Below are positions 16,551 through 21,401 of a stretch of 64,000 nt of DNA, in pieces. The DNA lies in assembly GCA_051453625.1 (NCBI GenBank), contig JBOZIK010000001.1, forward strand, positions 27,397,063 to 27,461,062, given 5' to 3'. Source of the DNA: Welwitschia mirabilis (taxonomy: Eukaryota). The number at the start of each line of letters is the position of its first letter. Position 1 is the stretch's first letter. Under the pieces are notes generated by a model. It had not been told where the DNA came from, ran no database searches, and saw nothing but the letters and a program-made list of their open reading frames with translations. The translations under genes and the position numbers were made by a program.

Positions 16551-19205
16551 TCAAGTTTTGCAATGATCTAAGCCGTTATGCATAAATCCAATTAATATGG
16601 AACTTAGAATCCTTGGTAAGATCCAAGGCATACCAGTCTATTAATTTTAGAATAAGTAATTTTGTTTTGTGGAGAAAATCAAGTTTTACTTGTAGATACT
16701 CCCATTTTATAGTTTCTAATTCCATCATAACATTTGCGGCTATATAAACATGCACTGTAACGCAAATGTTACTAATGACTTAAGACACTCTAGTCCATAT
16801 ACACTTCAAATTATTGTTTTTATGTCTATTTTATCACTTTTTAGAAAAACATATTTAAAATGATATGGCAATCATAGTATAAAATGTTTAATAGCTAATG
16901 CATTGAGAAGGTATTCATCCAAATTGATTATGATGTTTCACATAATAACAACATTTATATGATGATTGGTTTAAATACCTTATTCAATGTGAGCATTTAC
17001 CATGTAAGCATTATATACATTAATCCAAAATACTAACTTTTATTAAGATTCATGAGTTTTAAATTCATAGCGTTCAATTTTTTAATATGAAATATTAATC
17101 TCTTTATTAGATAATAGGAATTTTGATCTCAATCATGTTGATTAAATAAGATCTTATATTATGAATATACTTATAAGAACTAACATATTTAGGATTAGAA
17201 TTAAGACATATTACTTATAAGTCTTGTGAGTCATCTATATTTTTAATGTTATCTCATGGCTAGCATGTCCTTTTTTATCAAAATATCTAGTGAGTAGTTG
17301 TAGGAATGAAGTCAAAGTTGCATTGTGCTCCAAAATAAGGCTTTACTTATTTAGCTTCAAAAAATATATGTGATAAGAATTTTACTATTTCTTTAGGAAG
17401 TTTTTTGGCATTCATAGCAGTTAAGCAATATGACAATCTTTTACAAGATGAATGAGGCTCTATCAGTGCAAATCTAGTGAACAAAGGACTTTTAATTCTT
17501 ACCAAAATCCAAGGCATATTAATCTAGTAATTTTGGAATAAGTAATTTCTTTTTGGAAAGAATACCAAGTGATAATTATAAATACTCTTATTTTATAGTC
17601 TCTAATACCATCTTGACATTGGCTACTATACAAACATGCACTTAATGCAAATGTTACTAATGGTTCAGGACATTAAAAGTGCATACATGCTCCAAATTGT
17701 TATTTCTATGTCCCTTTTATCACTTTTCAAAGAATCATCTTTAAAATGATATGACACTTATAGTATGAAATGTTTAATATATAATGCATTGAGAAGGTAT
17801 CCACCCACATTAATTATAACCTTTAACATAAAGGTAATCATCATATGATGATTAGATGAAATCCATTACTTAATGAGAGCATTTATAATGTAAGCATTAT
17901 ATACATTAATCCAAAATACTAACTTATGTTGAAGATTCATGCCTCTTAAATTCATAGTATTTAATTTTTCAATAAGACCTCTTGTTAGATAATAGAAATT
18001 TTGAATCTAAGTTATCTTAATGAGATTGACTCTTATATTATGAAGATACTTATGAGGACCAACATATTTAGAATCATAATTGAGATAGATTTCTTATGAA
18101 TCTTATGAGTCATCTAGATTTTAAATATTACCTCCATGATTGGGAGTGCCTTTTGTGTCCAAATCTCCATTGAGCAATGGTAGGTATGAAGCTATATTAT
18201 GTTCTAAAATAAGGTTTTGCTTCTTTAGATTTAAAAGAGATATACAGTAATCATTTTACTATTTCTTTAAAAAATTTTCTAGAATCCATAGTAGTTGAGT
18301 AATATGACAATCTCTTACAAGGATAATAAGACTCTATCATCAATTTTTGCAATGATCTAAGTAGTTGAGCATAAATCTAGTTAACAATAAACTTTGAGTC
18401 CTTAGCAAAATCCAAGGCATACTAATTTAATAATCTTAGAATAAGAAATTTCTTTTTGAGAGGAATACTAAGTGCTACATGTATATGCTCCCATTTTGTA
18501 GTTTCTAATTTCATCATGACATTGGTTATTGTACAAACATGCATAAAAATGCAAATGTTACTAATGGCTTAAGACACTCTAATCCATACACACTTCAAAT
18601 TATTGTTTTTTAATCCATTTTACCACTTTTAACAAAAGTAACTTTAAAATGGTAAGGTATTCATAGTATGAAATGTTAAATAGCTAATGCATTAAGAAGG
18701 TGTCCACCCATATTAATTACAATCTTTCACATAAAGGCAATCATCATATGATGATTGATTGGAATCCCTTACTCAGTAAGAGCATTTACTATGTAAGAAT
18801 CATATACATTATTCCAAAATGCTAACTTCTACTAAAGATTCATCCCACTTAAAGTCATAGTACTTAATTTTTTAATAAGAAATCTTAATATTATTATTAT
18901 ACTAGAGGATTTTTGAATTTGAGTCATGTTGATGAAACTAGCTCTTATATTATGAATATACTTATAAGGATTAACATATTTAGGATCATAATTGAGACAA
19001 ATTTTTTATAAATCTTGTGAGTCATCTATGGAATGTCACCTCCATGGATGGAAGTACCTTTTATATCCTAATATCTAGTGAGTAGTGATAGGAATGAAGT
19101 AAAATCTACATTACACTCTAAAATAAGGTTTTGCTTCTTTATATTCAAAAATGACATGTAGTAAGCATTTTACTATTTCTCCAAAATGTTTGCTAGCATT
19201 CATAC
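16551..19205 (-). repeat. Three diverged tandem copies of a ~0.9-kb unit (~16551-17415, ~17415-18290, ~18290-19205)
   Basis: Anchors recur with ~890-bp spacing: atccaaggcat at ~16621, ~17507 and ~18410; gcaaatgttactaatg at ~16762, ~17647 and ~18551. Confidence 0.95.
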
Positions 19206-19835
19206 TTTTCAATTCCTCTAATGAAGTGAAACTTTTCATGTAATTTAAAGTATAATTACTAGTTATAGGATCATGTTCTACATGTGCTTTCAATAATTAT
19301 TGTGTCCTTATTTCCTTGTCTTCTACTGAATAAGGTAGTATTTTAGGTGTAATTCTTGGTTTTGAAACTCATAGAATTTAACATTTTTTTGATTCTATAT
19401 AATTGATTATCTTTGTCATGGTTAATATCAAATAAACATGGATTCTTTTATGATACTTTTCATTATTTTATGTTATCTTTTATAAATCTCATGCTAAGGG
19501 GATTATTTAATTTCATGGTTTTAGTTATAGAGGTATAATTACTAGTTTTACAATAAAAAATAGGTATTACTTTTTTTTTTTGTACTTATCCCTAACACTT
19601 GTGAAATAACATCAATGGAGTACTTCATTATAGTGAAAAGTAGATTTATTATACCAAAATATCTCTTGTTATGCCCTCATGAACTAGGTAGCTCTAACTT
19701 ATTAGTGGAAAATTAGTCAATATTATTAATAGAATATAGTTGTCTTTTCAATGATGAAATGCAGAGAGCTTCCTAATACAACCCTTGAACAATTCATTCT
19801 TCCAATCAAATAACTTCCTCATTCAACATAACTTC
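16551..19835 (-). pseudogene. Intron-less MIP1-leucine-zipper/DUF547-family pseudogene with the DUF547 domain present three times
   Basis: Manual translation: EVMLNEEVI*LEE*IVQGLY*EALCISS (zipper; cf. EVAVLEEEVVRLEEQVV..QGLYQEA..ISS). Then EIVKCLL...PYKYIHNIRAS...RFLIKKLSTMTLSGMNL**KLAFWNNVY...INMGGHLLNALAI*HFIL*IPYH...YGLECLKPLVTFA...RLLN*YALDFAKDS, matching the plant DUF547 motifs [37 protein letters not shown] and LLDWYLLDFAKD. Confidence 0.85.
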
Positions 19836-20400
19836 AACTAATTCAAAGAAATTTTCTTTAAAAAGTTCCTATATTGGACTAATAGAATCCAAATAATCTA
19901 TATTCACTACATTATATTCTCTTTTAAGAGAGTCCTTTAGAAATGCTAATTCATCATCAACATAAATAGTAAATTGAGGATCTTCAAAATCCATAGTAAG
20001 ACTAGGAAAGAATTGTTTGGATATACTTATAAATTATAATCATCTCATCAATTTGACATATGTTAATATTCTCCATGGCTATGCCTAGAAACTTCACAAA
20101 TAACTCCACTGTCTTCACCACTTATGACAAGCACATTTTTAGCAGTTAGAGCAGAGCAAAGTGAAAGATGGACTATCATATCTTGATAGGCATATTCATC
20201 CCTTTCAATTAGCTAAATAACACCTTCAAATACAAGGACTTTATCATAAGTTGCTAATTAAAACACTATTACATCTTGATACTCTGATTGGCCTTAATAT
20301 AAGACTTTCTTTACTTTTAATGAATGAACTTCACTAGGCCACATGGAATTAATTTTTTTTAAATCATTCAAAAATAATCAAAGGATAAGAAGATTAGGCC
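19836..20400 (-). pseudogene. SPDS: Intron-less spermidine synthase fragment (N-terminal ~two thirds)
   Basis: Manual translation: [123 protein letters not shown]...YNVVNIDYLDSISPI*ELFKENFFELV. This tracks plant SPDS (MWPGEAHSLKV...[33 protein letters not shown]...VLVIGGGDGGV...FEDPRV...[21 protein letters not shown]), with stops and frameshifts. Confidence 0.92.
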
Positions 20401-20924
20401 TCACTTATGTGTCCATCCATGTCATTTGTAAAGAGATTACAAACAAAAGAAGAAGAAAAATAATGGTTTTTTTACATTCTCTTATTTTGGGTACCATGAA
20501 ATTGTTTAATAAGAAGAACATTGCTATGTATGTTGATATTACTAGTATGTTCTTCACAAAGGAGGTAATAACCACCATGAACTACTACAATGTCCTAGAA
20601 TCTTTGAATGCTTTTTTATAAAAGCCATGAAGAGATAATATGGAAGTATTATCAATTAGATAATAAAGAAGGCCATAACACTTTAACCAATTAGCCTATC
20701 AATTAAAGAATTCTTTCTTAGCCATTATAGACTCATGTATTTAGATAGAGATTAAGGTTTGATCAAACATCTACTTCAAATCTATTTGGATCATCTTCAT
20801 TGGTTAACCTATTTGATGCTAAACCTACACAATTTGATAACATGGCTTCATATGGTTTGGTTCATCTTGACATGGAAAGCATATTTTTATCTAGTATATT
20901 ATCTAAGAAAAATCTTGTGGTAAA

Positions 20925-21401
20925 TTCCTTTTCGTTTTATGTGTAATTCCCATATTGTAAAATGCCTGAGCACATATGAGTTTTTGGATTTATACCTTTT
21001 CATAGTAGCTAAGAATCAAATCATATTATATACTACAAAATTNNNNNNNNNNNNNNNNNNNNNNNNNNNNNNNNNNNNNNNNNNNNNNNNNNNNNNNNNN
21101 NNNNNNNNNNNNNNNNNNNNNNNNNNNNNNNNNNNNNNNNNNTAAGTTCTTTATGGCATTCTTCCTTTCTGTCTTTTTTAGATAATCCTAAGTTTATCTG
21201 CTATGCTTTTTTCTTACAAAATTGCATTACAATACCTTAGTTTATACAACTCTAAATTTTCTTAAAACACCTATAATTAATATCACCCTTCTCTTATAAA
21301 TTAAATCTATATTAGAATAATTGATAAGAATAATCACATTTTGTTAGATAACATCCTAGATAAATTTTGAACTCATAATCAGTGATTGAGCATCATCACT
21401 A
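20925..21401 (-). pseudogene. TPR-repeat fragment resembling SPINDLY/OGT-type TPRs
   Basis: 20925-21042 reads YDLILSYYEKV*IQKLICAQAFYNMGITHKTKRNL (cf. SPY YDTALSCYEKAALERPMYAEAYCNMGVIYKNRGDL). Weaker matches lie across the gap (L*VQNLSR, IADKLRII) at roughly SPY-like spacing. Confidence 0.45.

Follow-up and report, generated by a model that had tools for sequence, protein, structure and literature searches.

A silent, single-copy retro-pseudogene joining cDNA copies of spermidine synthase and MIP1/DUF547 genes in Welwitschia mirabilis

Bipartite and tripartite chimeric retro-pseudogenes of the LINE type arise by template switching during reverse transcription (PMC2104539), and copy choice between co-packaged RNAs has been proposed for maize Bs1 and for LTR-retrotransposon transductions (PMC13317346, PMC5470649). 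In plants, multi-parent mosaics are documented mainly for Bs1 and through genome-wide surveys; how widespread template-switch chimeras are there is said to be largely unknown (PMC5470649). Here we describe a cassette in a window of 64,000 nucleotides of Welwitschia mirabilis DNA, the whole stretch that was analysed. In the cassette, two or more unrelated host genes are present as intron-less copies, of which spermidine synthase (SPDS) and MIP1/DUF547 lie end to end on the minus strand (Table 1). It is a clear example of a dead, single-copy retro-pseudogene, that is, of a known kind of genomic fossil and not of a new mobile element.

The cassette shares features with each of the described systems and differs from each of them. 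Like the LINE-type chimeras described in PMC2104539, it consists of RNA copies that are fused directly and in the same orientation, with a 5'-truncated 3' part and no introns. However, the 5' part of those chimeras is a full-length RNA, whereas the SPDS part of the cassette is truncated at both ends. They also have target-site duplications and an A-rich tail, neither of which is clearly visible here, where the ends are damaged, and the tandem triplication in the cassette is outside their pattern (PMC2104539). As in maize Bs1, several intron-less host-gene segments are found in one cassette, but Bs1 has LTRs and forms a mobile element family, whereas in the cassette, which is present in about one copy, neither LTRs nor gag were detected (PMC13317346, PMC5470649). 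Ordinary plant processed pseudogenes and retrocopies, as described in PMC5470649, are likewise intron-less, decayed and silent, with an expressed parent elsewhere. Unlike them, the cassette fuses at least two parents, and part of it has been amplified in tandem.

Table 1. Positions of the cassette parts and of neighbouring elements in the window
Feature	Position	Strand	Extent or basis
Old LTR retrotransposon, left	3147..11808	+	LTRs 3147-4428 and 10554-11808, 77% identity
High-copy repeat adjoining the 3' end of the cassette	15800..16494		Contig depth over this span; loose ends at 16494 mark the right limit
Tandem unit C	16542..17427	-	DUF547 residues ~353-579
Tandem unit B	17428..18330	-	DUF547 residues ~297/328-585
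Tandem unit A	18331-19204	-	Last 874 nt of the first DUF547 copy
First MIP1/DUF547 cDNA-like copy	18331..19847	-	Residues ~99-590 of P0002 (612-aa plant relative)
SPDS-to-DUF547 junction zone (ELFKENFF / ELVEV...)	19833..19847	-	In frame as the sequence now stands
SPDS cDNA-like fragment	19848..20359	-	Arabidopsis SPDS1 (1xj5) residues ~50-218, of 334
Piece(s) resembling expressed, low-copy host transcripts	20500..20870		RNA reads
Old LTR retrotransposon, right	22078..35678	+	LTRs 22078-23332 and 34491-35678, 79% identity

With stops read as X, the minus strand of 20066-20401 matches Arabidopsis SPDS2 and SPDS1 with E values of 9.5e-35 and 9.5e-34 (1xj5 residues 50-143). Identity to SPDS1, counted from the alignment of this first SPDS block, is about 59 of 94 aligned residues. 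A second block, 19743-20033(-), matches SPDS at residues 157-225 (E 4e-12), and the Pfam scores are 45 bits for Spermine_synt_N and 35 and 53 bits for Spermine_synth. All three in-frame stops in the first block align to Q. Two frameshifts are located near 20035-20075, and reads of the parental SPDS mRNA have two extra letters, at 20075 and 20077, compared with the window. About 171 SPDS codons lie within 512 nt, leaving no room for introns, and from this we infer that SPDS introns have probably been lost. For a duckweed SPDS1 gene, 9 exons have been reported (PMC8545783). Against our best explanation, one wheat SPDS gene is reported with a single intron (PMC9618216). The main texts of the literature provide exon counts for SPDS without residue-level intron positions. 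A continuation of SPDS to its C-terminus, together with an A11 run near 19575-19585, was considered and rejected, as this stretch is the leucine-zipper and variable region of DUF547.

The first DUF547 copy comprises a leucine-zipper part (19841-19743), a variable region, a PNKLSE-like motif and the DUF547 domain. By tblastn, residues 101-137 are found at 19841-19743 (57% identity), residues 353-505 at 19002-18541 and residues 513-578 at 18544-18347, and a frameshift-aware alignment covers residues 177-578. The leucine-zipper match is weak alone (tblastn E 0.011-0.064; 12.2 bits with a leucine-zipper profile), and Pfam Lzipper-MIP1 has no match in the cassette; the first copy is the only included match of the profile in the six-frame window. 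Plant genomic DUF547 loci have colinear HSP gaps at P0002 residues ~393, ~426, ~446, ~474 and ~514, which at locus L016 measure 91, 91, 94, 128 and 121 nt. We surveyed 54 plant genomic loci, none of them SPDS, and gaps were called at the five sites, in order, in 25 of 43, 16 of 35, 15 of 34, 18 of 32 and 26 of 34 informative loci. Counting against our explanation, the gap calls are absent in a third to half of the informative loci, presumably because these are cDNA-like contigs or alignment failures. In the cassette, all five intron sites (residues ~393-514) are absent in all three units. Residues 353-505 form a single 462-nt HSP in units A and B, with residues 513-578 directly after it, and the first HSP of unit C begins at residue 407. 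Judged by these alignments, the DUF547 fragments are intron-less relative to the plant genomic loci.

The Pfam DUF547 scores of the three units are 49.1, 48.2 and 45.5 bits, all above the cut-off of 27 bits, and unit B matches 118 proteins at E<=1e-3 (best 1.1e-20). Together they form an array (16542-19204) of one 0.89-kb piece in three tandem copies, with periods of 886 and 903 and pairwise identities of 77.3, 79.2 and 75.3%; the homology of unit C to units A and B ends at 16542. The A/B junction can be aligned with the B/C junction, and the two are one common junction. Among the organism B contigs listed, none spans a junction between tandem units. The three DUF547 pieces claimed by an earlier, sequence-only reading are real, but they are tandem copies and not three separate captures. 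Tandem Repeats Finder, whose longest period is 500, did not pick up the array. The common junction connects residue ~590, which lies within the last exon (513-612), with residues ~285-297, which lie within exon 3 (97-393). Since it is mid-exon on both sides and not at exon boundaries, we rejected a circRNA/back-splice or rolling-circle origin of the triplication.

At the boundary between the two genes, a single reading frame across 19743-20033 carries both the SPDS and the DUF547 parts. There is no spacer between them, both have the same orientation, and the DUF547 part is 5'-truncated, starting at residue ~99. This start is about 2-6 codons from the conserved start of exon 3 (T-L-E/G/A-L-L-A-E-V), of which the first two residues are not recognisable at the junction. 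The Pfam SPDS alignment extends about 13 residues beyond the junction as placed. Public contigs of two related organisms bridge the junction, the organism A contig (19586-21042) with 2 differences and the organism B contig (18860-20003) with none. Thus the chimeric SPDS/DUF547 junction is true, and the two parts are contiguous, in line with the sequence-only reading. Its view that at least two unrelated host genes follow each other on one strand also holds: both fragments are on the minus strand and directly joined, with significant matches for each, and the absence of introns was borne out when tested for DUF547 against plant genomic loci. An RNA-mediated (spliced) origin is thereby supported.

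Further upstream, the evidence comes mainly from RNA reads. Reads of two RNA runs cover part of 20500-20870, which takes in the 'unknown' and 'TPR?' pieces of the sequence-only reading. They are mostly less than 90% alike to it, and their loose ends fall consistently at 20500 and 20800. The X13/X16 depth ratio is about 0.3 over 20525-20699 and about 2.2 over 20700-20874, a difference that faintly suggests two parents for this zone. There is no Pfam or PDB support for 20500-20870 on either strand, and nothing credible was found to the right of 20400 among the cassette ORFs (16300-21040). A TPR piece had been proposed; the ORFs of >=20 aa in 16300-21040, 69 on the minus strand and 68 on the plus strand, gave no TPR match. 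Rad21/Rec8 was rejected for the 97-aa ORF 20328-20618(+), where the Pfam E value of 0.011 is at chance level for the roughly 250 ORFs tested, the PDB matches are unrelated (E 0.79 or worse) and Atlas gives 0.86 with no family. An FG-nucleoporin, read by eye in ORF 20749-20943(+), was also set aside, having no Pfam support. For the same 65-aa ORF, Atlas gives aspartyl protease at 0.94, with 136 common features compared with 170 typical of true members; this lead has no Pfam backing, and its three PDB matches are unrelated (E 0.47 or worse). The right-hand end of the cassette is interrupted by N runs at 21043-21142 and 21402-21726; one contig of organism A continues for 299 nt beyond 21042.

In organism A, the contig depth (X1) over 16500-21042 is 3-13, compared with 2.8-3.9 for the tiling contigs themselves. 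This is about single copy; therefore there is no amplified family, as had been suggested. A second copy of the cassette was not found within the window, and the cassette is present in two organisms. Expressed parent genes exist elsewhere in the genome. Parental RNA reads that are 85-90% alike cover parts of the cassette and continue into SPDS-like and DUF547-like coding sequence, with loose ends that translate to LACGSRSSP (DUF547) and to VSKQFFPSL and LREVSRHIS (SPDS). The cassette locus itself is silent, with no transcription to any visible extent: 2 of 385 (X16) and 3 of 645 (X13) placed RNA reads are >=99% alike to it. It is riddled with stops and has no function. Word-index protein searches with a 54-aa SPDS ORF and a 46-aa DUF547 ORF gave no match, because decay has gone too far for 5-mers to be shared. 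The decay is biased from G/C to A/T. The window has A/T where the RNA has G/C in 107 (X16) and 112 (X13) cases, compared with 12 and 10 in the reverse direction, and in the cassette the observed/expected ratio is 0.06 for CpG and 0.25 for CWG.

We suggest, with a probability of roughly 0.6, that the cassette is a composite cDNA of spliced host mRNAs that was inserted once, triplicated and decayed, its parts having probably been joined by template switching. One such cDNA would have inserted once into an intergenic, transposon-rich region. Its 3' part would derive from a DUF547/MIP1 mRNA, beginning at about the exon-3 start and stopping shortly before the coding region ends, and its 5' neighbour from an internal stretch of SPDS mRNA (residues ~50-218), with probably one or two more transcript-derived pieces upstream of SPDS. 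The joining would be due to template switching (copy choice) by a reverse transcriptase of the LTR or LINE type. Since internal stretches of unrelated mRNAs are joined directly, in one orientation and without introns, we favor template switching as the most likely route, and serial template switching would be the most economical mechanism. After insertion, a 0.89-kb segment (DUF547 residues ~297-590) would have been duplicated at the DNA level, and unequal exchange would then have extended the duplication to three units with one common junction. Decay by deamination of methylated cytosines would have followed, and the high-copy repeat would have come to adjoin the 3' end. Against this explanation, neither a clear poly(A) tail nor a target-site duplication is visible, with both ends compromised. 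In place of a tail there is only an A7 run at ~16499-16505, and no flanking direct repeat was found as a target-site duplication, the left end being obscured at 16494 by the repeat and the right end from 21043 by N runs.

The place of the junction also counts against template switching: by a rough estimate, a random switch would land this near to the exon-3 start (2-6 codons) in only about one case in 10. Because the DUF547 part starts so close to an exon start, a live rival is that a spliced fusion transcript existed beforehand and was retrocopied. In this rival, splicing would have joined SPDS exons to exon 3 of DUF547 before reverse transcription, through trans-splicing, through read-through following a rearrangement or in a chimeric gene assembled by transposons. 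The one reading frame through both parts is in its favor as well. However, a join is in frame 1 in 3 times by chance, the missing first two residues of exon 3 do not fit it, and no bridging RNA read is found among the matches listed; we regard it as unlikely. Still less likely in our opinion is a reading in which trans-splicing, or a fusion gene since lost, gave rise to an SPDS::MIP1/DUF547 mRNA joined in frame and exon to exon, and the cassette is what remains of its retrocopy, maybe for a short time a chimeric retrogene. If this were true, the retrogene would carry the tetramerisation and N-terminal catalytic part of SPDS, followed by a coiled-coil and the DUF547 domain, and would then have died and been triplicated.

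As unlikely as a retrocopied fusion transcript is, in our view, a Bs1-like transduction inside an LTR retrotransposon particle, whose LTRs would since have disappeared, lie concealed in the N gaps or have been overwritten by the repeat at 16494. As in Bs1, internal stretches of several spliced host mRNAs are joined to one another in a single orientation (PMC13317346, PMC5470649), and the window is full of LTR elements; the region of the cassette is intergenic and transposon-rich. The high-copy repeat could also be an LTR remnant: its summed contig depth is 93-854, compared with 3-13 to its right, and 30 (X1) and 25 (X5) contig loose ends fall at 16494; no protein domain was found in it. A Bs1-like LTR vehicle is nevertheless not supported: the cassette is single copy, and no flanking LTRs, gag, primer-binding site or polypurine tract were noticed. 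In agreement with the sequence-only reading, no LTR pair bounding it was found by self-BLAST, LTR alignment and sensitive flank comparison, in a sequence that has 425 N within 21043-21726. The left flank and 20380-22100 have no direct repeat in common (the best match between them is inverted, 60% over 200 nt, E 0.001), and gag, RT and integrase are absent from 55 flank and 137 cassette ORFs. The nearest LTRs belong to other elements, in which they pair with other partners; only the 5' members share the sequence following them. The two neighbouring LTR retrotransposons, the right-hand one with an RT_RNaseH_2 match at 27064-27318, are not the vehicle. Filler capture of cDNA at double-strand breaks is described for plants and yeast. 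Here, separate cDNA fragments would have been end-joined without retroelement integration, as would fit the doubly truncated SPDS and the lack of a clear poly(A), target-site duplication or terminal repeat. However, an in-frame join near an exon start is not predicted by it, and the missing end signatures are uninformative because both ends are damaged; we consider it quite improbable. Least credible of all is an origin at the DNA level, either through capture by a Helitron, Pack-MULE or CACTA element or through a segmental rearrangement of gene pieces in the genome. Such elements often carry fragments of several genes (PMC13317346), but five introns are missing from the DUF547 fragments, the cassette is single copy, and 14000-24000 contains zero inverted repeat pairs of >=30 nt, while in 11809-16600 the only pairs are weak and AT-rich.

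The cassette has no recognisable vehicle, and nothing about it points to a mobile element or a mechanism that would be new. As a plant example of a multi-parent retro-pseudogene it is clean and checkable, with a junction that has been kept in two related organisms. The near-coincidence of this junction with an exon start makes the choice between template switching and the retrocopy of a fusion transcript testable against aligned parent genes.

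The cassette is a roughly single-copy, apparently silent, heavily decayed chimeric retro-pseudogene. Its order on the minus strand is a probable further piece or pieces, residues 50-218 of spermidine synthase (SPDS), DUF547/MIP1 residues ~99-590, and two extra copies of residues ~297-590. The SPDS piece proposed by the sequence-only reading is well founded. Two minus-strand ORFs match Pfam Spermine_synth (E 1.9e-9 and 4.1e-8). Read through, i.e., with stops written as X, 20066-20401 (-) matches Arabidopsis SPDS2 and SPDS1 (E 9.5e-35 and 9.5e-34) over 1xj5 residues 50-143, with ~59 of 94 aligned residues identical by manual count and glutamine opposite all three stops inside the match. 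Further along, 19743-20033 (-) corresponds to 1xj5 residues 157-225 (E 4e-12), and the tetramerisation domain scores 45 bits in Pfam. The ~171 SPDS codons at 20359-19848 contain two frameshifts and leave no space for an intron. We consider intron loss likely here. SPDS was absent from all 54 loci fetched. Published gene structures disagree: a duckweed SPDS1 has nine exons (PMC8545783), whereas just one intron is given for an SPDS gene of wheat (PMC9618216).

SPDS similarity can be followed as far as ELFKENFF; from ELVEV / EV-MLNEEVI onward the sequence is recognisable as DUF547. The two parts are joined within 19833-19847, in a single minus-strand reading frame without a spacer, and contigs bridge the join; both parts lie on one strand, as had been proposed. 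The Pfam SPDS alignment overruns the placed join by ~13 residues, into a zone that fits DUF547 far better (21/37 identical versus a handful for SPDS). Exon 3 in plant DUF547 loci starts T-L-E/G/A-L-L-A-E-V, immediately after AG. Thus, the captured DUF547 part begins 2-6 codons from an exon start.

The DUF547 units lie head-to-tail with periods of 886 and 903, and are 75.3-79.2% identical in pairs. TRF missed this array because its period limit is 500 nt. Read through, all three units exceed the Pfam DUF547 cut-off of 27 bits (49.1, 48.2 and 45.5 bits). Among 1.84 billion proteins, the unit B search found 118 at E<=1e-3, of which 32 reached E<=1e-10; P0002, a plant relative of 612 aa, ranked first (E 1.1e-20). 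The units correspond to P0002 residues ~297/353 to ~579-590 by tblastn and frameshift-aware alignment, with 5-16 stops and 3-6 frameshifts apiece. The gene continues upstream of unit A through a variable region with a GKENQ-like motif, aligned back to residue 177, and the leucine-zipper part (residues 101-137) is found at 19841-19743 (57% identity, E 0.011, tblastn). Eight full-length relatives were used to build a zipper-region profile, whose sole included match in the six-frame window falls there (12.2 bits); the Pfam Lzipper-MIP1 model gave no match in this region. Taken together, the zipper, variable region and unit A therefore form one cDNA-like copy of residues ~99 to ~590 (~19840-18331), the final ~0.89 kb of which then recurs twice.

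Features of the window and gap sites in DUF547 loci (L016, a plant genomic locus)
Feature	Position	Strand	Basis or measure	Informative loci with gap
Left LTR retrotransposon	3147-11808		LTR identity 77%	
Unit C	16542-17427	minus	repeat finding + self-BLAST	
Unit B	17428-18330	minus	repeat finding + self-BLAST	
Unit A	18331-19204	minus	repeat finding + self-BLAST	
Right LTR retrotransposon	22078-35678		LTR identity 79%	
RT_RNaseH_2 piece	27064-27318		ORF domain match	
Transposase_32 ORF, 140 aa	39460-39879	minus	Pfam "putative plant transposon protein", E 5e-9	
Copia RT, integrase, gag	47.7-51.7 kb and 56.5-57.1 kb		ORF domain matches	
DUF547 gap	residue ~58		L016 83 nt	22/38
DUF547 gap	residue ~92		L016 706 nt	13/27
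DUF547 gap	residue ~393		L016 91 nt	25/43
DUF547 gap	residue ~426		L016 91 nt	16/35
DUF547 gap	residue ~446		L016 94 nt	15/34
DUF547 gap	residue ~474		L016 128 nt	18/32
DUF547 gap	residue ~514		L016 121 nt	26/34

Metagenome contigs were scanned with an alignment of eight relatives, giving 54 loci, many on long plant genomic contigs. Introns were called where colinear P0002 tblastn HSPs were parted by DNA gaps; where no gap was called, either the contig is short and cDNA-like or the HSPs have merged. Between residues 101 and 384, no gap was called in any of 41 loci. In the window, P0002 residues 353-505 form a single 462-nt HSP with 513-578 directly after. The pattern is the same in all three units, the first HSP of unit C beginning only at residue 407. 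Five DUF547 introns are therefore missing in every unit.

Each unit junction leads from residue ~590 to residues ~285-297. Because both sides are mid-exon, a circular RNA template made by back-splicing is ruled out. Homology between the A/B and B/C junctions shows that the array grew by DNA-level duplication and unequal exchange; independent template jumps are rejected as its origin. The three DUF547 pieces noted previously are thus real, but they are tandem copies, not separate captures. The near-equal unit identities suggest that both duplication steps were early.

The stretch is present wholly or partly in twelve sequencing runs from three studies, with 0.89-0.94 of sampled words in four organism A runs and 0.72 in two organism B runs; the best-matching run may be the sample behind the window assembly. 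Organism A contigs tile 15813-21042 with 0-2 differences each and a gap at 16002-16081, running across the join of SPDS to DUF547 as well as the two unit junctions. A contig from organism B matches 18860-20003 without any difference. The chimera is therefore real, not an assembly artefact, and older than the split between the two organisms. Summed depth over 16500-21042 in X1 (organism A DNA contigs) is 3-13, and the tiling contigs themselves have 2.8-3.9. At this depth the locus is low-copy, and the suggested amplified family is not borne out. In X5 (organism B DNA contigs), summed depth is ~50 in parts of the units (~45-54 within 17900-19124), where some contigs link unit A-like with unit C-like sequence; organism B may have more relatives of the units, or another unit number.

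Nearly all RNA reads align to the stretch over just part of their length (374/385 in run X16, 635/645 in run X13) and most are <90% alike. Translation of the overhangs gives DUF547 and SPDS sequence, so the reads derive from expressed parent genes. Only two (X16) and three (X13) reads are >=99% alike; thus the locus itself looks silent. The window has A/T where the RNA has G/C at 107 (X16) and 112 (X13) places, versus 12 and 10 in reverse, and CpG and CWG observed/expected in the cassette are 0.06 and 0.25. This depletion and bias suggest that the sequence decayed as methylated cytosines were deaminated. Between the units themselves, polarised by parsimony, the bias is milder: 81 C>T/G>A versus 83 T>C/A>G, which at a background G+C of 27% is ~2.7-fold per site.

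Neither strand has an ORF with a credible family match to the right of 20400, and the tentative TPR piece is unsupported. Rad21/Rec8 and aspartyl-protease leads failed corroboration. RNA reads with clean overhangs cover 20500-20870, at depth ratios that are unlike those over SPDS and DUF547 and that differ between 20525-20699 and 20700-20874. One or two more transcript-derived pieces are therefore likely.

The cassette sits in the 10.3-kb interval separating two old LTR retrotransposons, whose LTRs are four ~1.25-kb repeats in one orientation; sequence just inside the LTR is common to the two 5' members only. These elements belong to related families in the same orientation, and the right one contains a ~3.3-kb tandem duplication (27693-30779 and 30944-34071, 79-80% identity). 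The interval, which includes N runs, has no flanking direct repeat and no inverted repeats >=30 nt, and 55 flank ORFs have no transposon protein domains. The nearest LTRs belong to other elements, and no LTR pair is visible around the cassette, as had been reported. The cassette 3' end has just an A7 run ahead of a repeat at 16494. Left of this point depth rises to 93-854 and contigs break (30 in X1, 25 in X5), thus a high-copy repeat adjoins. Within 15800-16494 it shows depth to ~850, many internal deletion variants and no protein domain, and it ends sharply at 16494.

The window is AT-rich (27% G+C), has 16 N runs and is abundant in decayed plant transposon remains, with transposon-type matches in 10 of 57 ORFs >=70 aa. 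The Transposase_32 ORF scores 36.7 bits, under the 45-bit cut-off. A weak caulimovirus aphid-transmission protein match at 26106-26354 (+) (E 2.8e-4, under cut-off), near the RT_RNaseH_2 piece, may have arisen by chance or represent a pararetrovirus-like remnant. Nearly every duplicated pair shows 75-81% identity, including the LTR pairs, the ~3.3-kb duplication, the DUF547 units, 40662-41731 versus 46519-47589, and 54437-54928 versus 57850-58339. Window-wide CpG and CWG observed/expected are 0.15 and 0.47. Either a single ancient burst of activity or rapid decay driven by methylation could explain the uniform identities.

We favor, at a probability of about 0.6 for the account as a whole, one composite cDNA formed by template switching. 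Host mRNAs would have been joined in this cDNA, and the DUF547 segment would then have been multiplied by DNA-level duplication and unequal exchange. The main rival, a fusion transcript that was retro-copied, is improbable. Ranked after it, a degraded Bs1-like element is also doubtful: Bs1 has LTRs and copies, whereas neither was detected for the cassette. LINE-type chimeras differ in having a full-length 5' part, incomplete here, and a target-site duplication and tail, neither seen at ends damaged by the repeat and N runs. The cassette thus fully matches none of the defined families. Its kind is already known from template-switch chimeras (PMC2104539) and from Bs1 and plant chimeric retrocopies (PMC13317346, PMC5470649).
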